A stretch of 64,000 bases of DNA from Bacteroidetes/Chlorobi group bacterium MS-B_bin-24 (GTDB taxonomy: Bacteria > Bacteroidota > Ignavibacteria > Kapaibacteriales > UBA2268), in contig RCNO01000003.1 of NCBI GenBank assembly GCA_003731685.1, positions 6,780-70,779 of the forward strand, in the 5' to 3' direction. The notes beneath the pieces are model-generated. The model was not told where the DNA came from. It ran no database searches and worked only from the letters and a program-made list of their open reading frames with translations. Both the position numbers and the translations under genes were made by a program. Positions 22,211-40,803 of the stretch are shown here, piece after piece; the stretch's first letter is position 1; every line of letters starts with the position of its first letter.

Positions 22211-22220
22211 AGGTGAAGAA

Positions 22221-22541: not shown

Positions 22542-22562
22542 ATCATAAGGATAAGATAAAAG

Positions 22563-23222: not shown

Positions 23223-23225
23223 GAT

Positions 23226-23495: not shown

Positions 23496-23515
23496 TTAAT
23501 TAATTTAAGGATAGA

Positions 23516-23917: not shown

Positions 23918-23935
23918 TATAAGGGGAGACGAGCC

Positions 23936-24475: not shown

Positions 24476-24504
24476 AATGTTTAAATTAAGGAAGTAGGTT
24501 TTCA

Positions 24505-24876
24505 ATGAACAGACTTGAATTAAAGAAGGTAAGAAGGGAAAGGCGAAAACTTCGAGTAAGGAAAAAAATAATTGGAACAGCCGAAAGGCCCAGATTGAGT
24601 GTGTATCGCAGTCTGAAACACATATATGCACAGATTATTAATGATGAGCTTGGTCATACTTTGGTTGCCTGTTCAACGCTGGACAAGGAAGTGCGAAGCC
24701 AAATCACCGAAGGAATGAGCAAGGTCGAACAGGCGAAAATTGTTGGCAAAGTATTGGGCGAGCGTGCTTTGAAGGCTGGGATTCAAGCTATTGCATTCGA
24801 CCGAAATGGATTTCTTTATCACGGGCGTGTCCGAGCACTTGCCGAGGGCGCCCGAGAAGCTGGATTAAAATTTTAG
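24505..24876 (+). CDS. rplR: 50S ribosomal protein L18
   Basis: 123 aa, L18-like ([21 protein letters not shown]...[26 protein letters not shown]). Confidence 0.95.
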
Positions 24877-24897
24877 TAAAACAAGGTTTTTTAAGAT

Positions 24898-25401
24898 ATG
24901 GGAAAAATTAAGGCATCGGAATTAGAATTAAAAGAAAAACTTGTTTATGTTGGAAGAACGGCGAAAGTTGTCAAAGGTGGACGCCGATTTGGATTTACCG
25001 CTATCGTTGTCGTTGGCGATTACAATGGTCACGTTGGTGTTGGAATGGGTAAAGCAGCCGAGGTAATTGATGCGGTCAACAAAGCCACCGAGGCGGCAAA
25101 GAAAAGCGTGGTTAAGGTAAGCTTGAACAACAACACTGTTCCCCACGAAGTTATCAGCAAGTATGGAGCAGCGAAGGTTTTGATTCGACCTGCGTCCCCC
25201 GGAACTGGTGTTATTGCCGCTGGTGGAATTCGTGCTGTTTTGGAACTTGCCGGCGTCAAGGATGTGTTGACTAAAAGCCTCGGTTCTTCGAATCCCCATA
25301 ATACCACAAAGGCAACTTTGAAGGCGCTGATGATGATGGAAGATATAGGACAAGTAGCAGCTCGGCGAGGTATTTCACCACCAAAAGTTCTTTTCGGTTA
25401 A
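24898..25401 (+). CDS. rpsE: 30S ribosomal protein S5
   Basis: 167 aa, S5-like ([38 protein letters not shown]). Confidence 0.96.
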
Positions 25402-25413
25402 TGTGGAGTTGTT

Positions 25414-25605
25414 ATGAAAAAACTAAAGGTTACACAGATAAGAAGCATAATTAAGACAAATAAGAAGCAAAAAAGGACTATCGAGGCTCTTGGGCTTGGC
25501 AGGCCAAATTACTGGAATATCCTGCCCGATAATCCTCAAACTTGGGGTATGATAAAGGTTGTTCAACATTTGGTCAAAGTCGAAGAAATTGAAGTTAATG
25601 AATAA
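25414..25605 (+). CDS. rpmD: 50S ribosomal protein L30
   Basis: 63 aa, L30-like (KLKVTQIRSIIKTNKKQKRTIEALGLGR). It lies between rpsE and rplO. Confidence 0.9.
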   Translation: MKKLKVTQIRSIIKTNKKQKRTIEALGLGRPNYWNILPDNPQTWGMIKVVQHLVKVEEIEVNE

Positions 25606-25613
25606 GGTGTGAA

Positions 25614-26075
25614 ATGAAACATATTGGAAATTTACAACCAGCAGCCGGTTCGAAACATAAAGATAAGAGAATAGGCCGAGGACCCGGCTCTGGTCACGGT
25701 GGAAGTGCTACTCGCGGAACCAAAGGGCATCAATCCCGAAGTGGATACCACCGCAAATTGGCTTTCGAAGGCGGGCAGATGCCATTGATTCGACGAATCC
25801 CAAAATTTGGCTTTAACAATCGAAATCGTGTTGAATATCAAGTTGTGAACCTTGCGACGATACAAGATTTTATCGACCGTGGTAAAATTACATCCGATGA
25901 AATCGATGTCGATTTGATGTTCCAAGTGGGTTTGATTGGGAAGAAGAATCAGCCAGTCAAAATTTTGGGCGATGGGAATATTGCGAAACCAATAACAATT
26001 AAAGCCCATAAATTTTCTAAATCTGCTGTAGAAAAAATTGAATCAGTTGGAGGTAAGATAGCACAATATGAGTAA
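25614..26075 (+). CDS. rplO: 50S ribosomal protein L15
   Basis: 153 aa with a Gly/Arg-rich N-terminus (GRGPGSGHGGSATRGTKGHQSRSG) typical of L15. It precedes secY. Confidence 0.94.
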   Translation: MKHIGNLQPAAGSKHKDKRIGRGPGSGHGGSATRGTKGHQSRSGYHRKLAFEGGQMPLIRRIPKFGFNNRNRVEYQVVNLATIQDFIDRGKITSDEIDVDLMFQVGLIGKKNQPVKILGDGNIAKPITIKAHKFSKSAVEKIESVGGKIAQYE

Positions 26076-27417
26076 GTTTGTTCAAACATTTCAAAATATT
26101 TGGAAAATTGAAGAGCTCCGGCAAAGGCTTCTGTTCACTCTTTTTGCAATAATAGTAGCTCGAATTGGAGCTCACATTACTTTGCCCGGAGTCGATTTTC
26201 AAGTCCTATCTGCTTTCAACAAAGGTGCGGCACAGGATTTATTTGGGTTGTTCGACTTTTTCGTTGGTGGGGCATTTTCGAATGCTGCAATTTTTGCATT
26301 AGGTGTGATGCCCTACATTACTGCCTCGATTATTATGCAGTTGGCTGGAATTGTGATTCCCGAAATACAGAAAATGCAGAAAGAAGGCGAAGAAGGTCGA
26401 AGGAAAATCAATCAATACACTAGAATTCTGACGGTTCCAATCTGTGCTTTACAATCTTGGGGAATGGGTGTCCGACTTGTAAATATGGAGGCAAATGGAA
26501 TCCCGGTTGTTCCCCACTCGGGATTTTTCTTTTTCCTCTCGACAATTGTGCTTCTAACCGCTGGAACAATGTTTTTGATGTGGCTTGGCGAGCAAATAAC
26601 CGAAAAAGGGATTGGGAACGGAATTTCTTTATTGATTTTCATCGGTATAGTTGCTCGGTTCCCCGACGCTCTTTATCAGGAATTTTCGCAGGTCTTCACT
26701 CTTGGCGAACGCCCCTGGCCTGTTGAAATTATTATTTTGACATTCTGGGTGGCTATCGTTGCTTCGATTATTTTTATTTCGCAAGGAGCCCGTCGGATTC
26801 CTGTGCAATATGCAAAGCGACAGGTTGGTCGAAAAATATATGGTGGAACGACTCAATATATTCCACTTCGTGTTATCACTGCCGGGGTGATGCCAATCAT
26901 TTTTGCCCAATCGATTATTTTTATTCCCCAAACAATTTTCAACTTTTTCCCGACAAGTCAGTGGCTGCATACTATTGTGGTTGCTTTTAGCGAGCGGTCT
27001 TTTGTTTATGCAATTTTGTATGCCGGTTTAGTTATTTTATTCACTTATTTCTATACCGCTGTTATTTTCAACCCTCGTGATATTGCAGATAATATGAAGA
27101 AGCAGGGCGGGTTCATCCCCGGAATTCGACCCGGACAGCAAACCGCTGAATACATAGATTCTGTTCTTACGAAAATTACTTTGCCCGGTTCGATATTTCT
27201 GGCTTTAATCGCTGTAATTCCAACTTTTGCAATTCATGTTCTTGGTGTGACCACTTCGTTTGCTTCGTTCTTCGGTGGAACTTCGATTTTAATCGTTGTG
27301 GGAGTAATTCTGGATACTCTACAACAGATTGAATCGTTCTTGCTAATGCGCCATTACGATGGCTTTATGAAGAGCGGTAAGATTCGTGGTCGTGCTGGTG
27401 CTATTGGAGGTATTTAA
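26068..27417 (+). CDS. secY: Preprotein translocase subunit SecY
   Basis: 449-aa multi-pass membrane protein with SecY blocks (FALGVMPYITASIIMQL, GISLLIFIGIV). It overlaps the rplO end by 8 nt. Confidence 0.96.
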   Translation: MSKFVQTFQNIWKIEELRQRLLFTLFAIIVARIGAHITLPGVDFQVLSAFNKGAAQDLFGLFDFFVGGAFSNAAIFALGVMPYITASIIMQLAGIVIPEIQKMQKEGEEGRRKINQYTRILTVPICALQSWGMGVRLVNMEANGIPVVPHSGFFFFLSTIVLLTAGTMFLMWLGEQITEKGIGNGISLLIFIGIVARFPDALYQEFSQVFTLGERPWPVEIIILTFWVAIVASIIFISQGARRIPVQYAKRQVGRKIYGGTTQYIPLRVITAGVMPIIFAQSIIFIPQTIFNFFPTSQWLHTIVVAFSERSFVYAILYAGLVILFTYFYTAVIFNPRDIADNMKKQGGFIPGIRPGQQTAEYIDSVLTKITLPGSIFLALIAVIPTFAIHVLGVTTSFASFFGGTSILIVVGVILDTLQQIESFLLMRHYDGFMKSGKIRGRAGAIGGI

Positions 27418-28235
27418 TGAGGAAATCCGACAAAAAGGTTCAACCGAGTAATGTTAATTTCTCTTTGGTCAAGACGGCTGAAGAGATTAAACTTATTGAG
27501 AGAGCCTGTCGGATTGTTGCCGAGACTTTAGGTCTTTTGGAAAAGTATGTAAAACCGGGTGTCGAAACCATTGAATTGGACAAGATTGCCGAGGATTATA
27601 TACTTTCGCACGATGCTTTACCAGCTTTCAAAGGCTACCGTGTCGAAAATAAAGAGTATCCATTTACTTTGTGTATATCAATCGATGATGAGGTGGTCCA
27701 CGGTTTGCCGGGCAATCGAAAATTGAAAGAGGGCGAAATTGTTTCGTTGGATTGCGGGGTCCGTAAGGAAGGATATTACGGCGATAGTGCTGTTACGTAT
27801 CCTGTCGGTCAAATAAACGAAGAGAAAGAGCGTCTATTAAAAGTTACCCAGCGTGCATTGGAACTCGGAATCGAAGCTGCGATTGATGGGAACAAGGTTT
27901 ACGATATTTCTCGTGCAATTCAAACTTTTGTCGAGGCAAACGGATTTTCGGTGAACAGGGAATTGGTGGGACATGGCATTGGGAAGCGGCTCCACGAGGA
28001 ACCGGCGATACCAAATTTCGTTCCACCTTTGCTGGCAAGGAGGCAATATCCGAACCTGAAATTGCTCGAAAATATGACACTGGCAATTGAACCGATGGTA
28101 AACGCTGGAGAATACAAGGTAAAAACCAAAGAAGATGGTTGGACTGTTGTTACAGCCGATGGGAAACCTTCGGCACATTTTGAACATACAATTGTTGTTA
28201 CAAAAGATAAGCCAATAGTATTAACATATAGATAG
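27417..28235 (+). CDS. map: Type I methionine aminopeptidase
   Basis: 272 aa with MetAP blocks carrying the metal ligands (VVHGLPG, LDCG, GDSAVTY, VGHGIG, LAIEPM, HFEHTIV). TAATG overlap with the secY stop. There is no adk between secY and map. Confidence 0.94.
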   Translation: MRKSDKKVQPSNVNFSLVKTAEEIKLIERACRIVAETLGLLEKYVKPGVETIELDKIAEDYILSHDALPAFKGYRVENKEYPFTLCISIDDEVVHGLPGNRKLKEGEIVSLDCGVRKEGYYGDSAVTYPVGQINEEKERLLKVTQRALELGIEAAIDGNKVYDISRAIQTFVEANGFSVNRELVGHGIGKRLHEEPAIPNFVPPLLARRQYPNLKLLENMTLAIEPMVNAGEYKVKTKEDGWTVVTADGKPSAHFEHTIVVTKDKPIVLTYR

Positions 28236-28244
28236 AAAGAGAAT

Positions 28245-28463
28245 ATGGCAAAGCAAGGAATGATACAAATGGACGGTATAATTGAGGAAGCCCTTCCGAA
28301 TACTCAATTTATCGTTCGTTTCGAGAATGGGCACAAAGTCCTTGCTCATATTGCCGGCAAAATGCGAATGAATTACATTAAAATTTTGCAGGGGGATAAG
28401 GTTCGAGTTGAAATATCTCCCTACGATTTGACCAAGGGCAGAATAATTTATAGGTACAAATAA
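28245..28463 (+). CDS. infA: Translation initiation factor IF-1
   Basis: 72 aa, S1-like IF-1 ([62 protein letters not shown]). Confidence 0.96.
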
Positions 28464-28475
28464 TAGAGGTGGATT

Positions 28476-28592
28476 ATGAAGGTTAGGGCTTCTGTTAAGA
28501 AACGCTCTCCGGAGGATAAAATAGTCCGGAGGAAAGGGAGAATTTATATTATCAATAAAAAGAATCCAAGATATAAGCAACGACAAGGATAA
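28476..28592 (+). CDS. rpmJ: 50S ribosomal protein L36 (Cys-free form), not in supplied ORF track
   Basis: My manual translation of ATG 28476 to TAA 28590-28592 gives [38 protein letters not shown] (38 aa). It sits in the expected slot between infA and rpsM, and GAGG lies 6 nt upstream. Confidence 0.9.
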
Positions 28593-28605
28593 AAGGGAGG
28601 AGTAG

Positions 28606-28986
28606 ATGGCAAGAATAGCAGGTGTAGATTTACCAAAGAATAAGCGTGGATTTGTTGGGCTAACTTATATCTATGGAGTTGGAAGAACAACTGCAAAAGA
28701 AATTCTATCGAAGGCTGGTGTCGATGAGTTTAAAAAAGTTGGAGAATGGACCGATGAAGAAATAGCCCGTATCCGACAGGTTATTCAGGATTACAAAGTC
28801 GAAGGGCAGCTTCGTAGCGAAGTGCAGATGAATATCAAAAGATTGATGGACATCGGTTGCTATCGCGGATTCCGACATCGCCGAGGATTGCCCGTGCGCG
28901 GTCAAAGAACTCGAACAAATGCCCGCACTCGAAAAGGACGAAGAAAAACCATTGCTGGAAAGAAGAAAGCGGTTGGAAAGAAATAG
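28606..28986 (+). CDS. rpsM: 30S ribosomal protein S13
   Basis: [14 protein letters not shown]... is the canonical S13 N-terminus. 126 aa. Confidence 0.96.
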
Positions 28987-29014
28987 TTTTTGTAATATTA
29001 ATTAGTGGAAGAAA

Positions 29015-29401
29015 ATGGCAACTCAAAAACGAAAGACAAAGAAAAAGCAAGTTACCGAGATACACGGTAAAGCCTATATCCTTGCTACTTTTAACAATAC
29101 TATTGTAACTATAACCGATATGTATGGCAATACATTATGCTGGTCATCGGCAGGGAAGAGTGGATTTCGTGGCTCCAAAAAAAGTACGCCCTATGCTGCT
29201 CAGATAGCCGCCGAGAAAGCAGCAAAAGAAGCATACGATATGGGCTTGCGGAAGGTTGATGTTATTGTAAAAGGTCCCGGTAGTGGACGCGAAGCAGCCA
29301 TTCGAGCTCTTGCAACTGCTGGTTTGGAAATTCACAGCATTTTGGATAAAACTCCTATTCCCCATAATGGTTGCCGTCCACCAAAACGGCGGCGTGTTTA
29401 A
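29015..29401 (+). CDS. rpsK: 30S ribosomal protein S11
   Basis: 128 aa, S11-like ([42 protein letters not shown]...[16 protein letters not shown]). Confidence 0.96.
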
Positions 29402-29437
29402 TTGCTAATTAGTTAAGTTGAATAAATTTGGTTTAAA

Positions 29438-30475
29438 ATGTTAGATATCGATTTGTTTTTGCTTCTTCAAATGCCCGATATGGTCATTATCGAGGAGACA
29501 AGCGACCCTAATAATACTCGCTTTATTTTGCAACCACTCGAAAAAGGTTACGGCGTTACGATTGGTAATTCTTTCCGTCGCGTCTTGATTTCTACTGTCC
29601 CCGGCTATGCTATTATTGGGGTGAAATTTACTGATGTGCTCCACGAATTCCAAAATATTCCCGGGGTGCTCGAAGATGTTACCGATATTATTATGAATTT
29701 GAAGCAGGTTCGAATTCGAGCAACCGAAGGTAAACCGTTCAAGGTAAATCTCCATTTGAAAGGACCTTATACTTGGACGGCAAAGGACATACAGCGGAGC
29801 TCTGCACTGCTGGAAGTCACTAATCCTGACCTCCATATTGCAAGTCTTGCCGAAGATGCTGAGTTCGATGTTGAACTCCGAATTGGATTCGGCAAAGGCT
29901 ATATCCCAGCCGAGGAGCATCCTTTGGTAGATTATCCAATTGGGATGCTTCCAATTGATGCTATTTATACCCCAATAAAAAATGTTATTTACACAGTTGA
30001 ACCGCATCGGGTTGGTCAAAAAACTGACTACGAAAGACTGATTTTAGATGTATTGACCGATGGTACTATTACCCCAGCCGAGGCGGTTCAATTTGCTGCC
30101 AAAGTTTTATCGGAGCATATACAGTATTTCTTAACCTTCAAAGGTATTGAAAAACCAACCATAGTCGAAACAACTCCTGCTGATGAGACTCTTGAAAGCG
30201 AACAAGTCCGATTGCGAAGGATTTTATCGATACCCGTCGAAGATTTAGAAATAAGTGTTCGTGCATATAATTGCTTAAAGTCTAATAACATAAAGACATT
30301 GGGCGATATAGTTTCGAAAACCGAAGCGGATTTATTGAAACTGAAAAATTTTGGTCGAAAGTCGCTTAAGGAATTGGAAACGATTGTCCATCAATTTGGA
30401 CTTGAATTTGGTTTAAATTTAAGTCGCTATTTAAAATCCGAAAAATCGAACCGCTCTTTCGATTATGATTACTAA
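29438..30475 (+). CDS. rpoA: DNA-directed RNA polymerase subunit alpha
   Basis: 345 aa with an N-terminal dimerisation domain (LQPLEKGYGVTIGNSFRRVLISTVPG) and a C-terminal domain (LEISVRAYNCLKSNNIKTLGDIV). It directly follows rpsK with no rpsD in between. Confidence 0.95.
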   Translation: MLDIDLFLLLQMPDMVIIEETSDPNNTRFILQPLEKGYGVTIGNSFRRVLISTVPGYAIIGVKFTDVLHEFQNIPGVLEDVTDIIMNLKQVRIRATEGKPFKVNLHLKGPYTWTAKDIQRSSALLEVTNPDLHIASLAEDAEFDVELRIGFGKGYIPAEEHPLVDYPIGMLPIDAIYTPIKNVIYTVEPHRVGQKTDYERLILDVLTDGTITPAEAVQFAAKVLSEHIQYFLTFKGIEKPTIVETTPADETLESEQVRLRRILSIPVEDLEISVRAYNCLKSNNIKTLGDIVSKTEADLLKLKNFGRKSLKELETIVHQFGLEFGLNLSRYLKSEKSNRSFDYDY

Positions 30476-30493
30476 TTAAGATAAGGTGAGGCA

Positions 30494-31234
30494 ATGAGAC
30501 ATTTGAAAAAAGGATGGAAATTAAAAAGAACAGCTAGTCATCGTAAGGCTTTGCTAAGAAATTTAGCTATGTCTCTTTTTGAACATAAAAAGATTGTTAC
30601 AACAGTAGCCAAAGCAAAAGCATTGCGACCTTTTGTGGAAAAAATAATTACTCGAGCGAAACGAGCCGTAATTCGTGAAAAGAATGGACAACTACCCGAA
30701 GGAATGAAATATGACATTCATTCGCGTCGATTAGTTGCAAGCCTGATTCCCAACAAAGCAATTGTCCAAGAGCTTTTCGATACAATTGCACCAACTGTTT
30801 TGGACAGACCCGGAGGCTATACCCGAATTGTTAAATTGGGCTTCCGTCGTGGTGATGCAGCCGAACTCGCTGCCATTGAACTTGTTGATTGGGGAGCTCC
30901 ACAAGATGGTAATGTTTCGTTGAAGCAGAGCAAGAAGAAAGCGGCGAAAAAGACTTCGAAAGCCAAAGCCCCTGCAGAATCGAAGAAGAAGGCTGCGAAA
31001 GCTACCGAACCAGTCGCCGAGCAGACTCCCGAACCAGTTGCAGAGAAAACCGAAGCGGTAATGCCTTCGACCGAAGTTAAGGAAGAAAAACCGCAAGCCG
31101 AAGTCAGCTCGTCCTCCGAAGAATCTGCCCTTGCAGAAGAAGCCCAAACAGCAGAGGATGTTACTTCTGCTTCGGCTGAATCCGATGCTATTTCCGAAAA
31201 GCCTTCGCAAGATGAAATAAAAAGCGAAAACTAA
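30494..31234 (+). CDS. rplQ: 50S ribosomal protein L17 with about 110-aa K/A/E/P/S-rich C-terminal extension
   Basis: The N-terminal 135 aa or so is typical L17 (MRHLKKGWKLKRTASHRKALLRNLAMSLFEHKKIVTT...). The tail is low complexity (KKAAKKTSKAKAPAESKKKAAKATEPVAEQTPEPVAEK...). Confidence 0.92.
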   Translation: MRHLKKGWKLKRTASHRKALLRNLAMSLFEHKKIVTTVAKAKALRPFVEKIITRAKRAVIREKNGQLPEGMKYDIHSRRLVASLIPNKAIVQELFDTIAPTVLDRPGGYTRIVKLGFRRGDAAELAAIELVDWGAPQDGNVSLKQSKKKAAKKTSKAKAPAESKKKAAKATEPVAEQTPEPVAEKTEAVMPSTEVKEEKPQAEVSSSSEESALAEEAQTAEDVTSASAESDAISEKPSQDEIKSEN

Positions 31235-31275: not shown

Positions 31276-31733
31276 ATGAAGAAAGCATTTATTGTTACTT
31301 TTGTAACAGTGTTTCTCTTTTTTGGTTGTGGTGGAGATAAGAGCCGAGATTCAGGTCAGAAAACTTCGGAAGCAACAACATCGGGTCTGACGCGGTTTGA
31401 GTTGGAAAATGGGATTGGACCGATAAAAGAGAAATTACAACTTGGTCCGATTGATACAAATTGGCAGCAAAAGGGGAAGAGATTTGGAAACAAAAGTGTT
31501 CTGCTTGCCACAAATTGAATGAGCGTTACATAGGACCAGCACATAGTGAGGTTCTTAAAAGACGTACCCCTGAATTCGTAATGAATATTATGTTGAACCC
31601 AGAAGAGATGCAAAAGAAACACCCCGAGGTCAAAAAGTTGCTCGCTGAATATTTATCGGTTATGCCTAACCAAAATCTTACACTTGATGATGCTCGCGCA
31701 GTTTTAGAATTTTTGAGATTATCCACCAAATAA
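31276..31733 (+). pseudogene. Lipoprotein mono-haem cytochrome c (nos-associated), interrupted by a 1-nt frameshift near 31459-31462
   Basis: ORF 31276-31518 carries the signal peptide and lipobox (LFFGC) and then ends in a nonsense tail. ORF 31461-31733, one frame back, carries the haem site CSACH and a distal Met. Inserting a single T (AAT TTG GCA) would fuse them as ...LGPIDTN-LAAKGEEIWKQKCSACH. Confidence 0.6.
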
Positions 31734-31815
31734 ATTTTTTTTATTCTAAAATCAGATTTTTTTTCTTATTATATTTTATATGGAAAATTTTTTTTTAATT
31801 TGCAATTTGGTATTT

Positions 31816-31837
31816 TGTGTAGGCACAGTTCTACACA
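31816..31837. promoter_or_regulatory. 22-bp palindrome TGTGTAG-N8-CTACACA upstream of nosZ
   Basis: Perfect 7-bp inverted repeat read at 31816-31822 and 31831-31837, about 35 nt before the likely nosZ ATG (31871). The TGTG...CACA ends are reminiscent of Crp/Fnr-family half sites. Its function is not shown. Confidence 0.3.
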
Positions 31838-31870
31838 AAAATGTGTGTTAAACAATTTGAAGAGGTTCTT

Positions 31871-33835
31871 ATGTTCAACGCATTTACGAAAAAAGCAATC
31901 TTAATCGGATTGACTTTCGCTGCGTTAGTTGGTATCTACTTTGGATGTAAATCATCCAAAGAAGTTGTAAGTGGTGATGTTGCAAAAGCAGTTTATGTTC
32001 CCCCCGGAAGTTACGACGAGTTTTATCTATTTACCTCCGGGGGATTTAACGGGCAGGTAGGTGTGTATGGGCTTCCCTCGGGTAGGCACTTCAAAACCAT
32101 TTCTGTTTTCTCGCAAAATCCAGAAACTGGGTATGGCTATACCGAAGAGACCAAGCCAATGCTTATGACATCTTATGGGTTTATACCTTGGGACGATTCC
32201 CCCCATCCAGAACTATCGATGACCGATGGCGTACCCGATGGACGCTTTTTGTTTATTAATGCGAACAATACTCCTCGAGTTGCCAAGATTGATTTGCGTA
32301 CCTTCGAAACGACAGAAATCATCGAAATACCCAATGCAGCAGGAAATCACGCCTCGCCTTTTGTAACAGAAAATACTGAATATATTGTGGCTTCAACAAT
32401 GTTTAGCATTCCAATTCCACAGGCGGATGTTTCGATTTCTTCTTATAAGGAAAACTTTAAAGGGACAATTAGTTTTATTGCGTTAGACCCCAAGACAGAA
32501 AGAATGAATCTGGCTTTTCAGATTTTAGTTCCCGGATTTGATTACGACCTTGCTCACGCTGGCAAAGGTCCATCGCACGATTGGGCATTTTTCACTTGTT
32601 ATAATACTGAGCAAGCTAATACTCTGCTCGAAGTTAATGCATCGAAGAACGATAAAGATTTCATTGCCGCTGTCAATTGGAAATTGGCTGAAAAATATGT
32701 ACAGGAAGGCAAAGCAAAAAAAATGAATGTGGAATATTACCATAATGTTTATGATGAAAAGAAACATATGGCTACAAGCGAAGTAAAAACCGCAGTCTTA
32801 GTGCTCGAACCAAAGGATTGTCCGGGTATGATCTATTATCTACCAACTCCAAAATCTCCACACGGTGTAGATGTAGACCCAACAGGAGAATACATTGTCG
32901 GTGGGGGCAAGCTTGCTACAGTTATTCCTGTACATTCATTTTCTAAAATGTTAAAGGCTATCGAAAATAAGCAGTTCGACGGAGAAATCAACGGAATCCC
33001 AATTTTGAAATATGAAGCGGTGATGGCTGGTGAAGTTCAAAATCCCGGGCTCGGTCCACTGCATACTGAATTCGATGGCAAAGGTTATGCCTATACTTCG
33101 TGCTTCGTTTCATCCGAAATAGTAAAATGGAAACTTGGCACTTGGGAAGTTGTCGATAGAATCCCTGTATATTATTCGGTTGGACACCTTTGCATACCCG
33201 GAGGAGATAGCAAAAAGCCTTGGGGTAAATATGTTGTTGCATTGAATAAAATTACAAAGGACAGATATTTGCCCACAGGACCGGAACTTACTCAATCTGC
33301 ACAATTGATTGACATAACTGGTGAAAAAATGAAGATGTTGCTCGATTTCCCAACAGTTGGAGAGCCACATTATGCTCAGTCTATTCCAGCAGAAATACTA
33401 ATGAAAAATAGTGCCAAGATTTACAAACTCGAAGAGAATCAGCATCCTTATGCTGTTTTGAAAGAAGCCGATGCCCGAGTGGAACGTAAAGGGAACGAAG
33501 TTCACATTTATATGACCGCTATTCGTAGCCACTTTGCTCCCGATAATATCGAAGGTATTAAAGCTGGCGATGTTGTTTATTTCCATGTAACAAATCTTGA
33601 ACAAGATTGGGATATTCCTCATGGATTTACAATTAAAGGCTTAACAAATGCTGAAATGTTGATAATGCCTGGGCAAACAAAAACAATAGTATGGAAACCA
33701 ACTAAACCAGGGGTGTATCCATTTTATTGCACTGACTTTAGCTCCGCTCTGCACCAAGAGATGCAAGGATACGTCCGAGTTTCGCCTGCAAATGCCAATG
33801 TTCAGATAAGCTACAACACAACAGGGAAAAAATAA
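31871..33835 (+). CDS. nosZ: Nitrous-oxide reductase NosZ, clade II (Sec-type signal), with two non-canonical metal-ligand positions
   Basis: Propeller plus cupredoxin architecture, with motifs GNHASPF, KSPHGVDV, GLGPLHTEFDG, GEPHYAQ, DIPHGF and YCTDFSSALHQEM. The N-terminus MFNAFTKKAILIGLTFAALVGIYFGC has no twin-arginine. I chose the start at ATG 31871 (GAAGAGG upstream). The tracked ATG at 31841 is also possible. Confidence 0.9.
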   Translation: MFNAFTKKAILIGLTFAALVGIYFGCKSSKEVVSGDVAKAVYVPPGSYDEFYLFTSGGFNGQVGVYGLPSGRHFKTISVFSQNPETGYGYTEETKPMLMTSYGFIPWDDSPHPELSMTDGVPDGRFLFINANNTPRVAKIDLRTFETTEIIEIPNAAGNHASPFVTENTEYIVASTMFSIPIPQADVSISSYKENFKGTISFIALDPKTERMNLAFQILVPGFDYDLAHAGKGPSHDWAFFTCYNTEQANTLLEVNASKNDKDFIAAVNWKLAEKYVQEGKAKKMNVEYYHNVYDEKKHMATSEVKTAVLVLEPKDCPGMIYYLPTPKSPHGVDVDPTGEYIVGGGKLATVIPVHSFSKMLKAIENKQFDGEINGIPILKYEAVMAGEVQNPGLGPLHTEFDGKGYAYTSCFVSSEIVKWKLGTWEVVDRIPVYYSVGHLCIPGGDSKKPWGKYVVALNKITKDRYLPTGPELTQSAQLIDITGEKMKMLLDFPTVGEPHYAQSIPAEILMKNSAKIYKLEENQHPYAVLKEADARVERKGNEVHIYMTAIRSHFAPDNIEGIKAGDVVYFHVTNLEQDWDIPHGFTIKGLTNAEMLIMPGQTKTIVWKPTKPGVYPFYCTDFSSALHQEMQGYVRVSPANANVQISYNTTGKK

Positions 33836-33952
33836 TTTGCATATGTTGCTTATAGTAAAGAACGAATGAGTTGGATTTAAAGTAGTTTTTATGGATTAAT
33901 CCAAAATGTTTTTAAATATTGTTTCCATCTATAATGTTAGTTTGAATCTGTC

Positions 33953-33981
33953 GGGGGAGGTTTTCTCCCCCTTTATATTTT
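33953..33981 (+). terminator. Rho-independent terminator after nosZ
   Basis: GGGGGAG (33953-33959), 5-nt loop, CTCCCCC (33965-33971), then TTTATATTTT. Confidence 0.65.
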
Positions 33982-34025
33982 AAGTGGTCAAATTGTTAAT
34001 TGTTAAATTATTTATAGGCTAAAAA

Positions 34026-34601
34026 ATGAAAAAAAGTTCAAAGATATTATTGTTGGTTAGTTCATTAATTCTTATTGGAATTTTTTTCTTTCCGCTTTGG
34101 ACAATCGACTTGCAAGCTCCGCAATACCCCGAAGGACTTACAATGGGTAGCTGGATTAACAAAATATCGGGAGATCTGAAAATAATAAACGATTTGAACC
34201 ATTATGTAGGAATGAAGGAAATCGTACCCGATGCTATTCCAGAGCTCAAGTATATGCCCTTCATTGTTGGTTTTCTAATTGTTTTTGGTCTTGTCAATTT
34301 CTTTTTAGGGAATAAAAAATTAGTTTGGGTTTGGATTATTCTTTTCGTTCTTTTAGGGGCCATTGGTCTTTATGACTTTTATATGTGGGAATATGATTAT
34401 GGCCACAATTTAAATCCAAATGCTGCAATTAAAATTCCTGGAATGGCTTACCAGCCCCCTTTGATTGGTTCGAAGCAAATGCTCAATTTCCATGTTGACT
34501 CTTATCCATCAATAGGGTTTGTTATAATAGCAGTTTCTATTCTTTTAGCCATTTTAGCTATATATTTGAGTAGAAATGTTGAACATAAACAGGAGGGGTA
34601 A
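34026..34601 (+). CDS. Integral membrane protein, NosB-like (gene immediately downstream of clade II nosZ)
   Basis: 191 aa with 4 predicted hydrophobic helices. Its position after nosZ matches the membrane protein described as nosB in clade II clusters. I recognised no diagnostic motif. Confidence 0.5.
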   Translation: MKKSSKILLLVSSLILIGIFFFPLWTIDLQAPQYPEGLTMGSWINKISGDLKIINDLNHYVGMKEIVPDAIPELKYMPFIVGFLIVFGLVNFFLGNKKLVWVWIILFVLLGAIGLYDFYMWEYDYGHNLNPNAAIKIPGMAYQPPLIGSKQMLNFHVDSYPSIGFVIIAVSILLAILAIYLSRNVEHKQEG

Positions 34602-34605
34602 TATA

Positions 34606-35073
34606 ATGAATTTTCTTTTGTTGATTTCTGTAATTGGATTGTTATTCTTTGGATGTTCACGAGGTCCCGAACCAATTGATTATGGTAAGGATGCGTGTGC
34701 TGCTTGCAAGATGACAATAATGGATAATAAATATGCAGCGGAAATAGTAACGAAAAAAGGGAAAGTTTATAAATTCGATGCAATAGAGTGCTTGTTTAAT
34801 TTCAAGGCAAAAAATTTAAAGGAAGAGGATATATTTTCCGAGTGGGTATGCGATTTTTCGGACCCCGGTAAATTGATTAATTTAAGGAAGGCATATTTCC
34901 TTCATACCGAAGCTTTCCAAAGCCCGATGGGACTGGATGTTCTTGCTGTAGCCACCAAAGATAAAGTTAAAGAGATTCAGACTAAGTATGGCGGACATAT
35001 TATGAATTACAATGAGGTTCGGGACTTTGCAATTCAAAGAAAAATGATGAATGAGATGGAAATGAAACATTAA
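34606..35073 (+). CDS. nosL: Copper chaperone lipoprotein NosL
   Basis: Lipobox LLFFGC and a NosL-like core (IDYGKDACAACKMTIMDNKYAAEIVTKKGKVYKFDAIEC). I moved the start to ATG 34606 after AGGAGG. The tracked start at 34576 overlaps the upstream gene. Confidence 0.85.
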   Translation: MNFLLLISVIGLLFFGCSRGPEPIDYGKDACAACKMTIMDNKYAAEIVTKKGKVYKFDAIECLFNFKAKNLKEEDIFSEWVCDFSDPGKLINLRKAYFLHTEAFQSPMGLDVLAVATKDKVKEIQTKYGGHIMNYNEVRDFAIQRKMMNEMEMKH

Positions 35074-35081
35074 AAAGAAGT

Positions 35082-36341
35082 ATGGAAAAAATGAGAATGT
35101 TTTTTAGACTTTGGAGTCTAGTTTTTATACTTTTGCTATATCCTTTGCTGAGTTATTCTGCTCGGACTTATTTGATTTCAAATGAAAAGGAACTAATAAA
35201 CACATTGCGAATAGTCGCCGATGGAGATTCCATTGTTGTTAAGCCGGGGAGGTACTTAGTTGATAGTTTGGTGATTCGCAGGTCAATTAGTTTGATAGGG
35301 ATAAACTTTCCGGAGATAATTGGAAACAAAAGGGATGAAGTGATAACTATCCGTGCCAATGGGGTACTGGTTAAAGGGTTAAAAGTCAAAAATGCGGGTA
35401 TTAGTTTTCTTCGCGAAAATGTCGCAATAAGATTCGAAGAAGTTAATGGGGGCGTTGCAGAAGGCAATATTTTGGACAGCAATTTTTTTGGCATTTATAT
35501 TTCAAAATCTCAAAACTGTGTTGTAAAGAACAATGTGATAGTTGCTTATAACAGAACCGAAACATTTTCTGGGAACGGCATTCATCTTTGGTATTCAAAA
35601 AATATTACTATTATAGGGAATAAGATTCAAGGACATAGAGATGGAATTTACTTTGAGTTTGTTAAACATGCGCTTGTAAAAGGGAATTATAGCAAAGATA
35701 ATCTTCGCTATGGTCTTCACTTTATGTTTTCCGATAGTTGTGGTTACATCGAAAACACTTTCGAAAGCAACGGTGCTGGGATTGCGGTTATGTATACCAA
35801 AAATGTTACAATTAAATCGAATCGTTTTATCAATAATTGGGGTTCCGCTTCTTTTGGTTTGTTGCTTAAAGAGTTGACCAACTGTTTGATAGAGAACAAT
35901 CATTTCGAGAAAAATACTAATGGACTTTATTTGGAAGGTTCAAATCGTATTACAGTGAAACGGAACAATTTTATTCGGAATGGTTGGGCTATCAAATTGA
36001 TGGAAAATTCAATGGAAAATTACTTTACCGATAATAACTTTGTTGGAAATTCATTTGATGTGCTTTCGAACAACAGAACTACTTACAATACTTTTTTTAG
36101 AAACTATTGGAGTCGATATACAGGATTCGACTTGAATCGTGATGGTTATGGAGATGTTCCCTATCGCCCTGTCTCCTTTTTCTCAATTATAGTCGAAAGA
36201 CAACCTAATGCTTTGGTTTTGTTGCATAGCCTTTTTGTGGGTTTACTTAACTTTGCCGAAAGTATTATTCCATCGCTAACGCCAATGAATTTATTTGACC
36301 CAGAACCAAGAATTAAGAGTTTTCCAATAAGTTTATCTTAA
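35082..36341 (+). CDS. nosD: Periplasmic parallel beta-helix protein NosD
   Basis: 419 aa with a signal peptide and repeated beta-helix turns carrying NosD-like blocks (GNGIHLWYS, RDGIYFEF, RYGLHFMFS, GAGIAVMYT, DLNRDGYGDVPYRP). Confidence 0.88.
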   Translation: MEKMRMFFRLWSLVFILLLYPLLSYSARTYLISNEKELINTLRIVADGDSIVVKPGRYLVDSLVIRRSISLIGINFPEIIGNKRDEVITIRANGVLVKGLKVKNAGISFLRENVAIRFEEVNGGVAEGNILDSNFFGIYISKSQNCVVKNNVIVAYNRTETFSGNGIHLWYSKNITIIGNKIQGHRDGIYFEFVKHALVKGNYSKDNLRYGLHFMFSDSCGYIENTFESNGAGIAVMYTKNVTIKSNRFINNWGSASFGLLLKELTNCLIENNHFEKNTNGLYLEGSNRITVKRNNFIRNGWAIKLMENSMENYFTDNNFVGNSFDVLSNNRTTYNTFFRNYWSRYTGFDLNRDGYGDVPYRPVSFFSIIVERQPNALVLLHSLFVGLLNFAESIIPSLTPMNLFDPEPRIKSFPISLS

Positions 36342-36352
36342 TTAATTGAACA

Positions 36353-37072
36353 ATGGTTGAAATTCAAAATTTATCGAAAAGATTTGGGAGATTTGAAGTT
36401 TTAAAAGAGATTAACGCAAATTTTAAAAGCGGGAAAATTACGGCAATTGCTGGTCCTAACGGTTCGGGTAAGACTACGCTTATCAAAATAATTTTAGGTT
36501 TGGTGAAAGCCGATAGTGGGAAAGTGTATGTCTTCGGTGAACCTATTAACGGCGTTTGTAGTTATCGCCAAAAAATAGGATATATGCCCCAAATTGCCAA
36601 TTACCCCGAAAATTTGACCATTTCTGATATCATTAAACTCATTAAGGAACTAAGAAATGTTCGTGGGAATATCGAGGAAAAATTCATTAGAGAATTCAAT
36701 TTAGAGAACGATTTGAACAAGCCAATAAGGACACTTTCGGGTGGTACGCGACAAAAAGTTGGGGCAGTTCTCTCCTTGATGTTTGACCCAAGTGTTTTAA
36801 TCTTCGATGAACCAACTGTTGGGATGGACCCTGTTGTGAGCAGCCGATTCAAAGAAATTATGCTCGAAGAAAAACAAAAGGGCAAAGTCATAATTATTAC
36901 CTCCCACGTTATGAGCGAAATCGAGGAGCTTGCCGACGAAATTCTCTTTCTTTTGAATGGGAAGGTATATTTCAGTGGCTTAATCAGCGAATTGTTGAAT
37001 GCTCAAAACGAGACTAAATTGGAGCGTGCCGTTGCCAAGATTTTAGAAAATCAAACAATTTTGGATGTTTAA
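36353..37072 (+). CDS. nosF: ABC transporter ATP-binding protein NosF
   Basis: Walker A GPNGSGKTT, signature LSGGTRQKV and Walker B LIFDEPT. It directly follows nosD. Confidence 0.88.
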   Translation: MVEIQNLSKRFGRFEVLKEINANFKSGKITAIAGPNGSGKTTLIKIILGLVKADSGKVYVFGEPINGVCSYRQKIGYMPQIANYPENLTISDIIKLIKELRNVRGNIEEKFIREFNLENDLNKPIRTLSGGTRQKVGAVLSLMFDPSVLIFDEPTVGMDPVVSSRFKEIMLEEKQKGKVIIITSHVMSEIEELADEILFLLNGKVYFSGLISELLNAQNETKLERAVAKILENQTILDV

Positions 37073-37087
37073 CAATTCAGGTGTTCT

Positions 37088-37513
37088 ATGATACACATTA
37101 AATTTTTCGATTGGTTTGAAAATCATATTAATATTGCCTATTCGCTTATAAGAATTTTTCTCGGCTTTGCGTTGTGTATACGAGGTCTTTTGTTTATGTT
37201 TGACCCACAGACATTGACCAATCTTGCTGGCGAACCCCAAAATTTTTGGATTTTTGCTTATACCTCTGTGGGGCATCTTATTGGTGGTTTTCTTCTAGGA
37301 ATTGGCTGGTTCGTTCGGCTTGGTGCTTTAATCCAAATACCAATATTACTTGGAGCAGTTTTTACTATCCACTTACGTGTAGGACTGCTAACCTCTGGAC
37401 AATCGCTTGAACTTTCGGTGCTTGTTCTTTTTCTCCTGGTTGTTTTCTTTTTGTTTGGTGATGGTGGCATAACAATCAAAAGCATTTTCAAGAAAAGCTC
37501 TGTTACCAATTAA
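37088..37513 (+). CDS. Small four-helix membrane protein, DoxX-like
   Basis: 141 aa with four hydrophobic segments and a pattern (LIRIFLGFALCIRG...HLIGGFLLGIG...) that resembles the DoxX/DoxD family. The assignment is by eye only. Confidence 0.5.
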   Translation: MIHIKFFDWFENHINIAYSLIRIFLGFALCIRGLLFMFDPQTLTNLAGEPQNFWIFAYTSVGHLIGGFLLGIGWFVRLGALIQIPILLGAVFTIHLRVGLLTSGQSLELSVLVLFLLVVFFLFGDGGITIKSIFKKSSVTN

Positions 37514-37518
37514 ATTCA

Positions 37519-37911
37519 ATGCGGATTGCCTTTATTACATATGTGTTAGGGGTTCTATCATATTTTATAACTATAAATGCGAATCTTGTCGCATACTTTG
37601 AATATTTGGTCAATTATGATTTCATAGTGCAAAACCTTTGTGTGCAAAAAGATGAACCTATCAACACTTGTCACGGACATTGCCATTTGCGAAAAAATTT
37701 GGAGAAAGTAGAGGAAAATAATGGAACGAAAGAAAGAAAAAATGTAGAGTTGAAAACTAATGTCAAGATAGAAAATCATCGTTTAACATCAACAGTTTGC
37801 AATTTAATACCGAACATTACTTCCCTGATTTTTTACAATTTTAATGTCAATTACTTGATTAAACCTTTTGTTGAAAAAAACGATCCCCCTCCAAGGCAGT
37901 TTTCATTTTGA
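37519..37911 (+). CDS. Hypothetical N-terminally anchored protein with Cys/His cluster
   Basis: 130 aa with one N-terminal hydrophobic helix, then NLCVQKDEPINTCHGHCHLRKNL and a C-terminal DPPP. It starts 5 nt after the DoxX-like gene and lies upstream of the receptor gene. Confidence 0.55.
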   Translation: MRIAFITYVLGVLSYFITINANLVAYFEYLVNYDFIVQNLCVQKDEPINTCHGHCHLRKNLEKVEENNGTKERKNVELKTNVKIENHRLTSTVCNLIPNITSLIFYNFNVNYLIKPFVEKNDPPPRQFSF

Positions 37912-38017
37912 GTTAAAATTCTAACTCACATATTTAGCGTTTTTCTGTTGGGATAACATTTGAATTATTTTTAAAAACTTATGTAAATTTTTTGATAAAC
38001 AATAAAAGGGGGATGTT

Positions 38018-39856
38018 ATGAAAAAATTATTAATTTTTCTTTTCCTTCTTCCATTTGTGTCTTTTGGTGAGGCAAAAGATACTTTAAAGACATATAAAAC
38101 AAGCGAAGTGGAAATTATATCTCGTCGTGAAATCCAGTTTGTAAAACTTCAAGATTATGGTCCGGGTTATAGCAGCGAACTATTAAATCGGAATGGTTAC
38201 CAACTGATTCGCCGCGGATTGAGCTTTACGCAAGACATTTATTCCGATGGGTTTAAGAAAGGTGATATTCGAGTTGTTATTGATGGGGAATATTATCATA
38301 ATGCTTGTCCAAATCGTATGGATGCCCCTGCAACAAGAGTGAATCCGGTCGACTTGTCGGAGGTTGAGATAACCAAAAGTACGAGTTTATTAAGCACTGG
38401 CTTATACGGAAAAGTTGAGTACCATAGAACAAAACTGGAGAAGCCGCTTAGGTTCAAATCCTTTGTCAGCGGTCAAGTCGGTGCAAATTCAGAATACGAT
38501 GTAAGTTTTTCTGCCCAATCACATTGGACAAGTATAAGTGCCCGATTTTCTCAAGGGATTCCTTATAAGAATGCAAAAGGTAATAGTTTTAGGGACCTTT
38601 ATAGGTATAAAGATAATTATAAATTTTCATTTGGAAACATTGGGATTAGAAAACTTTTACCGGAATTAAATTTAGAAGCAGGCTTTAATTTTTCCTACGC
38701 AAAAGATATTTCCTTCCCCTATTTGATGATGGATGAAAGAAGCAGCAAAGTATTTAGTGGTTATTTACAATATAAAGGATATAAGGCATATTTGAATTAT
38801 ACTGACCATTTAATGAATGATGGATTGCGAGAGAATGCAATGGGTATGGAAACACGGGCTAAAAACATTACCACTGGAATTAAAGGCGATTTCTTTGAAT
38901 TTGTCTATCGGAATTGGAATGCGGATAATGTTATAATGCAAATTTCAAACAAAATGCTACCAAATGTCGACCAGTTTGCATTAAATCTTGCTTCCGATTA
39001 TTCACTTGGCTTTGTGAAGTTATTTTTTAAAGGGGGAGTGAATTATCTTCGCTATAAAGACGAATCGCGAAAGGCATTTTTCGAGTCGCTTTATCCCGAT
39101 GCAAAGACAGGACGAATTTTCATTTCTGGAGGTCTTAGCGCAATAATTGGGCATCAATTCTCCGAAAAACTTCTGTGGTCAGTTCTTCCAGAAATTGCAA
39201 CAGATGCGCCAGAGCCTGAAATGCTTTTTCTTGCACTCGTTCGGCCTATGAACAAACCCGATTGGAGCGGTAATCCAACTCTGAAACAACCGATAAGAGC
39301 TACTTTGCGAACATCGTTGCAAACAGATTTCTTAACCCTTGAGCTTTTTGGAAATTATGTTTTGAATTACGTTGATATTGTAGTTAAAAAGAAAGAAATG
39401 AAAAATGCAATGACCTACAACAACGTAAATGCAATCATAGCTGGGGCAAATTTGAAATTTAACTATAAGTGGCTGACCACAGAACTTTCCTACCTTTGGG
39501 GAGAAAATGAGGACAATAAGAAACCGCTTGCCGAAATTGTGCCACTTTCAATTTCTTCCAAAGTGGAAATTCCGATTGTCGAAAATCTTTCCGTCTTGCT
39601 AACCCACAGGTGGGAAAACGCACAAAAGAGAGTTAATCCCGATTTGAAGGAATTTTCCACTCCGGCTTGGAACACACTGGGTTTGGGGCTTGTTTACTCG
39701 TTTAGTTGGATACATTTCGATTTACAAATACAAAATCTTCTCAATCATAATTATTACAGATTTCTTTCGTTTTCGAGGAACCCATTTTCCGCTGGTTTGC
39801 CAGTTTATGAGCCGGGTCGTGTATTTATGCTAACAGTTTATTTCAATAAGAATTAG
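38018..39856 (+). CDS. TonB-dependent receptor-like outer-membrane protein (OprC/NosA-like candidate copper channel)
   Basis: 612 aa with a signal peptide and a plug-like N-terminal region (...LIRRGLSFTQDIYSDGFKKGDIRVVIDGEYY...). The remainder is rich in alternating aromatic beta-strand patterns. It contains C97-PNR-M101 and H264-L-M266. Confidence 0.65.
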   Translation: MKKLLIFLFLLPFVSFGEAKDTLKTYKTSEVEIISRREIQFVKLQDYGPGYSSELLNRNGYQLIRRGLSFTQDIYSDGFKKGDIRVVIDGEYYHNACPNRMDAPATRVNPVDLSEVEITKSTSLLSTGLYGKVEYHRTKLEKPLRFKSFVSGQVGANSEYDVSFSAQSHWTSISARFSQGIPYKNAKGNSFRDLYRYKDNYKFSFGNIGIRKLLPELNLEAGFNFSYAKDISFPYLMMDERSSKVFSGYLQYKGYKAYLNYTDHLMNDGLRENAMGMETRAKNITTGIKGDFFEFVYRNWNADNVIMQISNKMLPNVDQFALNLASDYSLGFVKLFFKGGVNYLRYKDESRKAFFESLYPDAKTGRIFISGGLSAIIGHQFSEKLLWSVLPEIATDAPEPEMLFLALVRPMNKPDWSGNPTLKQPIRATLRTSLQTDFLTLELFGNYVLNYVDIVVKKKEMKNAMTYNNVNAIIAGANLKFNYKWLTTELSYLWGENEDNKKPLAEIVPLSISSKVEIPIVENLSVLLTHRWENAQKRVNPDLKEFSTPAWNTLGLGLVYSFSWIHFDLQIQNLLNHNYYRFLSFSRNPFSAGLPVYEPGRVFMLTVYFNKN

Positions 39857-39945
39857 TTTTTTTTACTTCGGGAACGGAAATTCAAACAGCGAAGAAGGGG
39901 ACAATCCCGTTTATTTCAATAAGAATTAGTTTTTTTTACTTCGGG
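39836..39945 (+). repeat. Perfect 37-bp direct repeat (two copies, 73-bp period) duplicating the receptor gene 3' end
   Basis: GTTTATTTCAATAAGAATTAGTTTTTTTTACTTCGGG is read at 39836-39872 and again at 39909-39945. Copy 1 contains the last 6 codons plus the stop codon of the 38018-39856 gene. Confidence 0.9.
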
Positions 39946-39975
39946 GCTTGCCAATTCTTGGCGAGCCCCATTTTG
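39943..39975 (+). terminator. Rho-independent terminator
   Basis: 12-bp stem GGGGCTTGCCAA (39943-39954) / TTGGCGAGCCCC (39958-39969) with one G-U pair and a 3-nt loop, then ATTTTG. Confidence 0.7.
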
Positions 39976-40014
39976 CGATTTATACCTTAAATTTGTTGTT
40001 TTATCGAGGCAAAA

Positions 40015-40803
40015 ATGAATTTTGTTTTTAAGATTTTGAAGATAGAATTAAATAATGTAATCAAAAGCCGTTGGTTTTTCTTCTTTTTTGGCTTTTTCTT
40101 TCTTGTCTCCTATGCATTGTTATCGTTTGAGGACAATATTCAGAAAAGTTTATTAAGTCTTTTAAACTTGGTGATTTACCTTGCACCATTAATAACGCTG
40201 ATTTTTGGGACTATGTATTTTTACAATTCCCAGCCTTACATCGAGATGATGCTTAGCCAACCCATTCCCCGAGCCTCATTGTTTGTTGGCTTATATCTTG
40301 GAACTTCAATCCCGTTAATGTTGAGTTTTATTTTGGGGCTATTCCTTCCTTTTTTATTGTTTTCGGATATTTTAGCTTACTTAAATCTTTTCTTAATCCT
40401 ATTATTAATTTTAATTCTTCTTACGCTTTCTTTTGTATCAATTGCTTTTTGGATATCAACGGAAATCGGTGATAAAGTAAAAGGTTTGAGTCTTTCGATT
40501 TTGATTTGGCTGGTTTTTGGCATAGCATTCGATGGTTTAATTCTTTTTATTACTTTTCTTTTCTCGGATTATCCTTTGGAGAAAATCTTAATTGGCTTAA
40601 CTGTTTTAAATCCAATTAACCTTTCTCGCACTATTTTTGTTCTTAATTTTGAAATCTCCGCGCTAATGGGTATCACTGGTGCAGTATTTAAAAAGTTTTT
40701 TGGCAGTTCATTGGGAACTTTTGTCTCTTTGGGCTCAATGTTGTTTTGGATTGTAATCCCGTTTCTTTTTGGGTTAATTGGCTTTAAACGAAAAGATTTT
40801 TAA
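40015..40803 (+). CDS. nosY: ABC-2 type permease NosY
   Basis: 262 aa with about 6 hydrophobic helices and a NosY-like N-terminus (ILKIELNNVIKSRWFFFF). It lies in the nos cluster but is separated from nosF by 2.9 kb. Confidence 0.75.
   Translation: MNFVFKILKIELNNVIKSRWFFFFFGFFFLVSYALLSFEDNIQKSLLSLLNLVIYLAPLITLIFGTMYFYNSQPYIEMMLSQPIPRASLFVGLYLGTSIPLMLSFILGLFLPFLLFSDILAYLNLFLILLLILILLTLSFVSIAFWISTEIGDKVKGLSLSILIWLVFGIAFDGLILFITFLFSDYPLEKILIGLTVLNPINLSRTIFVLNFEISALMGITGAVFKKFFGSSLGTFVSLGSMLFWIVIPFLFGLIGFKRKDF

Follow-up and report, generated by a model that had tools for sequence, protein, structure and literature searches.

A probable missense-inactivated clade II nitrous-oxide reductase gene in a Mushroom Spring bacterium, "Candidatus Thermonerobacter thiotrophicus"

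The Sec-dependent (clade II) nitrous-oxide reductases (NosZ; TIGR04246) of Ignavibacteria, Kapabacteria, and Bacteroidota consist of a seven-bladed propeller and a C-terminal cupredoxin domain, carry a Sec or lipoprotein-type signal and a CuA motif in the context C-[TS]-D-F-C-S-A-L-H-Q-E-M, and are encoded with nosL, nosD, nosF, nosY, and an upstream cytochrome c gene. The CuA center is a Cu2(S-Cys)2 diamond built on the motif Hx34Cx3Cx3Hx2M and requires two bridging thiolates; replacement of a bridging cysteine by serine in PmoD abolishes the CuA spectral features (PMC6189053). The seven histidine ligands of the second center, CuZ, are H129, H130, H178, H326, H382, H433, and H494 in the nitrous-oxide reductase (N2OR) of Pseudomonas stutzeri. 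The engineered H129A variant of that enzyme folds normally as a dimer, keeps CuA, has a CuZ site that holds no copper and is either empty or occupied by zinc, and is completely inactive, and the H178A variant has about 2% of activity left (PMC8179356). Here we examine a clade II nosZ gene in a 64,000-nucleotide stretch of MS-B_bin-24 (contig RCNO01000003.1, positions 6,780–70,779, GCA_003731685.1), which we call the window and whose coordinates are used throughout. MS-B_bin-24 is a metagenome-assembled genome (MAG) of a hot-spring bacterium from Mushroom Spring (Yellowstone), described as "Candidatus (Ca.) Thermonerobacter thiotrophicus"; the published description lists its NosZ (gene 00000354) as evidence for nitrous oxide (N2O) reduction and does not mention ligand changes (PMC6338057). 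The NosZ encoded in the window has lost one ligand of each copper center, and we posit that the gene is probably a real, population-fixed, missense-inactivated clade II nosZ in the Mushroom Spring population, whose nos cluster would be in the early phase of its decay. The gene and the codons in question are the following.

31841–33835, + strand: nosZ, Sec-dependent (clade II) nitrous-oxide reductase, 664 codons; the NCBI start is at Met11 (31871)
33728–33763, + strand: CuA motif C630-x3-S634-x3-H638-x2-M641, residues 630–641 of the nosZ open reading frame (ORF)
33740–33742, + strand: codon 634, AGC (Ser) at the position of the second bridging CuA Cys, which the six wild-type-like alleles all encode as TGT
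32201–32203, + strand: codon 121, CCC (Pro), CAC (His) in relatives; equivalent of CuZ ligand H129 of P. stutzeri N2OR
32399–32401, + strand: codon 187, ATG (Met), AGG (Arg) in close relatives, from alignment with homologues and sister alleles

The nosZ product scores 962.5 bits against TIGR04246 in an NCBIfam profile search (cutoff 625) and lies below the cutoffs of the other models, with 366 bits for the TAT-type (twin-arginine) model TIGR04244 and 172 bits for the clade III L-NosZ model NF052460 (cutoff 700). It contains the Pfam domains nos_propeller and Cupredoxin_1, and solved NosZ structures match it in an HMMER search of PDB (best E=1e-88), with 6Y6Y and 7AQ0–7AQA among the matches. 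Its N-terminus, MFNAFTKKAILIGLTFAALVGIYFGC, read directly from the sequence, is without an RR motif and has a lipobox-like Cys at its end, and the export signal appears to be of the Sec or lipoprotein type, not twin-arginine. The protein is identical to P0121/P0122, which is NCBI ROL60535.1 (start Met11) of MS-B_bin-24, and shares 87% identity with the best match in GTDB genomes, an Ignavibacteriaceae NosZ. No second nosZ copy was found within the 64-kb window. Like the clade II enzymes, then, it shows full-length homology, the domain order, signal type, and motif context of the group, and the accompanying accessory and cytochrome c genes; unlike them, it is without the second bridging CuA Cys, the first His of the DxHHP motif, and Arg187, a state found in no other member examined. 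Judged from its alignments, the window gene is a clade II NosZ by homology that fails two defining features of the group, the seven CuZ histidines and the two CuA cysteines.

The letters at 33728–33763 are TGC ACT GAC TTT AGC TCC GCT CTG CAC CAA GAG ATG, translated C-T-D-F-S-S-A-L-H-Q-E-M. Ser634 aligns with the second CuA cysteine of solved structures (YCNWF-C-HALHMEM in 1QNI/9F8X; C622 in P. stutzeri; HMMER), the other CuA ligands H594, C630, H638, and M641 are kept, and the neighboring Asp632 and Ser635 are normal for the subgroup. Counted along the HMMER alignment, Pro121-His122 stands opposite P. stutzeri H129-H130 and the DxHHP motif reads DSPHP, while six of the seven CuZ histidines are kept (H122, H170, H341, H408, H449, and H510). 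The first-pass annotation of this DNA had proposed both changes, together with the statement that codon 634 lies outside any homopolymer; the serine at 33740–33742 is borne out by the sequence, the ORF, and the structure alignment, the His-to-Pro change is H121P, and the codon indeed lies outside a homopolymer. Its suggestion of a comparison with orthologues proved informative: column 634 is Cys in all 206 relatives checked (120 homologues, 80 GTDB loci, and 6 sister alleles), the sister alleles have TGT, and the window lineage has Ser throughout. The 120 nearest database homologues, at 73–96% identity, all have Cys, as do the 80 loci of GTDB species genomes (51 TGT and 29 TGC codons), and the canonical full-length NosZ in a set of 50%-identity representatives of 1.8 billion proteins have it without exception. 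The His at position 121 is likewise invariant in the 120 homologues and in all canonical full-length NosZ representatives at 50% identity. Position 187 is Arg in 119/119 outgroups, in P0001, and in the six wild-type-like alleles; this Arg is confined to the Ignavibacteria/Bacteroidota-type subgroup, with Q or E in more distant clades. A degenerate DNA scan limited to AGY codons found no other natural NosZ with an AGY serine in the CuA motif and returned two chance matches without NosZ homology.

The GTDB genome scan supplied outgroups only, there being no same-species genome among its matches, and the polarity of the changes was read from six wild-type-like alleles in six other IMG samples and the same 90% cluster (L001, L092, L093, L100, L101, and L102). 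These alleles differ from the window nosZ at 31–67 nucleotides (96.6–98.4% nucleotide identity), and at the protein level the window NosZ is at least 96% identical to the canonical alleles. Exactly 11 nucleotide changes in nosZ are private to the window lineage, and at each of these sites the six alleles agree with one another. The private synonymous changes are at E7, Y62, L63, and P79, and the nonsynonymous ones are Y2C (upstream of the NCBI start), H121P (CAC>CCC), R187M (AGG>ATG), E318A, V575A, and C634S. The last of these is TGT>AGC, made up of 33740 T>A and 33742 T>C; since all six wild-type-like alleles have TGT, Ser634 took two nucleotide changes. The first-pass remark that AGC is one nucleotide from TGC is thus correct as regards the genetic code and fails for the actual ancestor, TGT, which is two substitutions away. 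The columns of H121P, R187M, and C634S show no variation across the 119 outgroups and P0001, whereas those of the remaining private changes are variable; in the sister allele P0001, no private replacement touches an invariant column. On these alignments, H121P, R187M, and C634S are derived and private to one lineage. In the P0001/L001 nosZ we also observed differences crowded into the linker and cupredoxin region (L001 11450–11830, codons ~484–610); L092 and L093 do not share them, and they have the look of a tract acquired by recombination with a more divergent allele.

In an exact-sequence look-up of JGI, ENA, Logan, and NCBI data, the window NosZ was recovered from 51 index blocks and at least 40 contigs, and the identical protein is present in at least 15 independent assemblies. 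Over ~8 kb, ten contigs from different samples are 99.93–100% identical to the window, and one, L003 (IMG 3300031875, 196.6 kb), is identical to it; across these 11 sequences nosZ shows 0 nucleotide differences. Because the same protein recurs in many independent assemblies with no nucleotide variation in nosZ, the allele is real and not sequencing noise, and the Ser634 allele is genuine rather than an assembly error. An exact 39-mer scan of metagenome_contigs gave no match to either allele, the collection evidently being without these samples, and is uninformative on allele frequency.

What these replacements would do to the enzyme can be judged from mutagenesis of the orthologous residues (PMC8179356) and from CuA chemistry. 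H121P would leave the catalytic CuZ center with six of its seven His ligands, C634S would leave the binuclear CuA electron-entry site with a single bridging thiolate, and R187M would alter an Arg that is invariant in the subgroup. A change of His to Pro is at least as disruptive as one of His to Ala. The protein would be expected to fail both in assembling CuZ and in forming a mixed-valent Cu2(S-Cys)2 CuA, and N2O would not be reduced. Given the inactive H129A precedent and the dependence of CuA on two bridging thiolates, the window NosZ is most likely catalytically dead. The precedent and the natural allele share the loss of the H129-equivalent ligand; unlike the engineered enzyme, the window protein carries a natural change, to Pro, in a clade II enzyme and in combination with a CuA Cys-to-Ser replacement. 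The literature searched contained nothing direct on mutagenesis of NosZ C618/C622 or on Cys-to-Ser variants of CuA azurin.

The genes around nosZ are arranged as follows.

31276–31518, + strand: cytochrome c gene, N-terminal fragment with lipoprotein signal, ending early after a frameshift
31461–31733, + strand: out-of-frame remainder of the cytochrome c gene with the heme-binding domain (CSACH; Pfam Cytochrom_C, E=6e-8)
32716–32723, + strand: A8 homopolymer within nosZ; A9, frameshifting, in L094–L097
34026–34601, + strand: conserved 191-amino-acid membrane protein after nosZ, present in 77/80 related loci
34576–35073, + strand: nosL (copper chaperone), intact ORF (Pfam NosL, E=1.5e-13)
35082–36341, + strand: nosD, intact ORF (Pfam; TIGR04247, 408 bits, cutoff 300)
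36353–37072, + strand: nosF-like ABC ATPase, intact ORF (Pfam ABC_tran; syntenic in L001 and L093)
40015–40803, + strand: nosY-like ABC-2 permease, intact ORF (PF12679 on syntenic genes)

In the cytochrome c gene, a deletion of one base pair (CC>C at 31456) leaves the signal peptide and the heme domain in different reading frames. Intact relatives are 152 amino acids long with CSACH, and the translation of 31461–31733 is identical to the C-terminal part of the intact cytochrome c of L002. Besides the window, the deletion is present in five of the ten contigs compared (L003, L006, L008, L010, and L011) and absent from L002, L004, L005, L007, and L009; it is largely linked to a nearby haplotype of single-nucleotide polymorphisms, with L010 discordant in carrying the deletion on the other background. 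The gene is intact in all contigs with a wild-type-like nosZ allele that extend over it. The deletion looks like a real, later event: since it is polymorphic and the nosZ lesions are fixed, it would have arisen after them. About half of the population is additionally without the dedicated cytochrome c. Within nosZ itself, the A9 form (+1 A) occurs in contigs of four other samples (L094–L097) that otherwise have the same nosZ allele and represent both cytochrome c haplotypes, and its source would be recurrent slippage or else an artefact of the homopolymer. An added A in an A-run (window 34808) also splits nosL in L008 and L094.

The 191-amino-acid membrane protein, which has no match in Pfam or NCBIfam, carries a private I42S replacement (codon 34149–34151) at a position that is Ile in 77/77 outgroups. 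NosD has a private A114V where outgroups have A or S, and the private changes of nosY are three synonymous and no nonsynonymous. As to the cluster as a whole, the first-pass annotation had read the upstream cytochrome c as frameshifted, counted three independent lesions in the electron-entry and catalytic part of the pathway, and taken nosL, nosD, nosF, and nosY to be intact. The four accessory genes are intact as ORFs and the multiple lesions are supported, with R187M and I42S of the membrane protein now added; the frameshift is present in the window and turns out to be polymorphic in the population. I42S, the segregating cytochrome c frameshift, and possibly the nosZ A8>A9 change would represent the same pattern of decay elsewhere in the cluster, which suggests a nos cluster under relaxed selection and in early pseudogenization. 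We infer the loss of the copper centers, the loss of activity, and relaxed selection as the cause.

The nos cluster (31276–40803) lies directly downstream of the ribosomal-protein/secY/rpoA/rplQ operon (21841–31234), and none of map, rpsM, rpsK, rpoA, and rplQ was found within the nosZ flanks, of up to 6 kb, of 80 other genomes. This operon-adjacent position could explain continued transcription of a dead nosZ. Between nosF and nosY (37088–39856) are genes for a DoxX-family protein, a 130-amino-acid hypothetical protein, and a 612-amino-acid protein. The DoxX gene, the one of the three that was tested, is present in 1 of 80 related loci. The 612-amino-acid protein is weakly similar to TonB-dependent copper receptors (TIGR01778, 68.6 bits, far below cutoff) and, on this similarity, may be a copper-uptake component of the nos cluster. 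The spacer between its gene and nosY contains 74 bp with a T-rich start (39857–39930) that are absent from L001. Farther along the window, an ORF of 2680 amino acids is found on the + strand (52702–60744).

Full-length NosZ-like proteins in which a whole copper site is missing also exist among divergent relatives with 30–39% identity (P0149, P0254, P0193, P0212, P0229, P0242, P0169, and P0195). P0149/P0254 have no CuA ligands and P0193, P0212, P0229, P0242, and P0169 have no CuZ histidines; across the set, some keep all 7 CuZ His without CuA ligands, others keep CuA with most or all of the CuZ His gone, and one has neither. The window protein resembles them in being a NosZ-related propeller-cupredoxin protein with missing metal ligands. 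However, these are old and separate families in which nearly all ligands of a site have been replaced, whereas the window NosZ has lost one ligand per site. Membership in these families or in clade III L-NosZ is ruled out by the identity of at least 96% to canonical alleles and by the L-NosZ score of 172 bits against 700. A closer likeness is to the missense-first pseudogenes of clonal bacteria, with which the locus shares derived replacements at invariant sites, segregating frameshifts, an intact frame, and continued transcription; it differs from them in that its dN/dS stays under 1 and the mutant clade has no diversity, which falls short of formal proof of relaxed selection.

Several observations weigh against an inactivated, decaying nosZ. 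The nosZ ORF is intact, the nos genes of MS-B_bin-24 have been reported among the night-expressed respiratory genes (PMC6338057), and the MAG is ~91% complete, which leaves room for a second nosZ outside the window. The pN/pS ratio (nonsynonymous to synonymous differences) of nosZ against L001 is 0.25 rather than ~1, compared with 0.13 for nosD, 0.02 for nosY, and 0.36 for rpoA, and the private branch, with ~4 synonymous and 5 nonsynonymous changes in the mature region, is no proof of neutrality. The private changes of nosD, nosF, and nosY together are 15 synonymous and 3 nonsynonymous, and these genes may still be constrained. Housekeeping genes of the window lineage are affected as well: rpoA has 2 synonymous and 6 nonsynonymous private changes, and in rplQ (30494–31234) E247* (GAA>TAA, window 31232) gives an L17 of 246 amino acids where L001, L092, and L093 have 249. 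This suggests that slightly deleterious mutations are in general more numerous in the clonal population, and part of the signal in the nos genes would then not be specific to them. Lastly, at least two of five random changes would fall on the 12 side-chain ligand residues with P=0.0035, and with inactivation assigned to the first ligand hit, we estimate P ~0.07 for the second; these values leave some room for selected removal of the metal sites. We do not count them as evidence for targeted selection, because the finding was picked after the fact.

Per-gene and private-branch dN/dS were rejected as a decisive test, nos and housekeeping genes being inseparable by them in this lineage: rate ratios do not isolate the nos genes because housekeeping genes also show a raised nonsynonymous load. 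It is, in these alignments, the placement of the changes that sets the nos genes apart. All 6 private RpoA replacements are in variable columns, a weak control in that only 16% of RpoA columns are invariant. In mature NosZ 36.7% of the columns are invariant, and at least three of five random changes would fall there with P=0.26.

Three other explanations deserve weighing against missense inactivation. That the serine is a consensus error of sequencing, assembly, or binning over a true TGT or TGC codon might be argued from the single codon involved, from the Cys of relatives at 98.4% nucleotide identity, and from the possibly erroneous homopolymer indels of some contigs in the population (nosZ A8>A9 and the nosL A-run). 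Yet all three nosZ lesions are identical in at least 15 assemblies that come from different pipelines (JGI, ENA k141 MEGAHIT-style, Logan, and NCBI ROL60535.1), codon 634 differs at two non-adjacent bases outside a homopolymer, and nosZ is invariant among the 11 sequences compared, which effectively refutes such an error and leaves it a negligible probability. A second explanation accepts the allele and holds that the enzyme still works, perhaps at lower activity, with a mononuclear or Ser-ligated copper entry site and a six-His CuZ. Five of six CuA ligands and 6/7 CuZ His do remain, the accessory genes are intact, and the residual activity of P. stutzeri H178A indicates that ligand loss is not always absolute. 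Against this, alanine at H129, the residue aligned with position 121, left neither CuZ copper nor activity, and Pro is more disruptive than Ala; CuA needs two bridging thiolates; neither change occurs in any of more than 200 natural NosZ sequences; and half of the population is also without the dedicated cytochrome c. We consider a working enzyme very improbable.

The third explanation, to which we give somewhat more weight than to a working enzyme while still judging it unlikely, is remodelling or repurposing, in which both copper sites were removed under selection and an intact, transcribed ORF was maintained, either because losing an enzyme with a high copper demand was adaptive in sulfidic, copper-poor mats or because the propeller-cupredoxin scaffold took on a new role. 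It would account for two of five amino acid changes falling on metal ligands (P=0.0035 under uniform random placement), for codon 634 having changed twice, for an ORF that is intact in most contigs and reported as transcribed, and for the few replacements in nosD, nosF, and nosY, and natural NosZ-like families without a whole copper site (P0149, P0193, P0212, P0229, and P0242) provide a parallel. A probability of ~0.07 for a second ligand hit after inactivation is not compelling, however, for a finding chosen after the fact, and the near-clonality of the triple-mutant population, which has no nosZ diversity within the mutant clade, means that it shows no sign of purifying selection after the changes. 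Further disruptive lesions (the segregating cytochrome c frameshift, the nosZ A9 frameshift, and I42S in the membrane protein) do not fit maintenance, transcription is expected anyway directly downstream of the rpoA-rplQ operon, and the ligand-less families are old, distinct, and only 30–39% identical. The narrower proposition that the loss of one ligand per center and the double hit in codon 634 were selected rather than neutral appears less probable still. Were it true, the allele would represent either the adaptive switching-off, in a sulfidic and copper-limited mat, of an enzyme that needs much copper, or a first step to a metal-poor NosZ-like protein with a new role, a living intermediate towards the ligand-less families.

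Missense inactivation of nosZ, which we favor over these alternatives, would be a variant not reported before that disables a known enzyme in a bacterium with a Candidatus name; its novelty is modest and it involves no new mechanism. Its interest lies in the wide use of nosZ presence to infer N2O-sink capacity from genomes and metagenomes. The window gene passes the profile hidden Markov model cutoff, is reported as transcribed, and has been used in a published prediction of N2O reduction, and essential ligands of both of its copper centers are missing. Surveys of nosZ can therefore overcount functional genes, and the ligand columns should be checked. The locus also offers a natural, datable snapshot of the decay of a respiratory module, in which missense changes came first and frameshifts are still segregating, and for which intact sister alleles at ~98.4% identity serve as controls.

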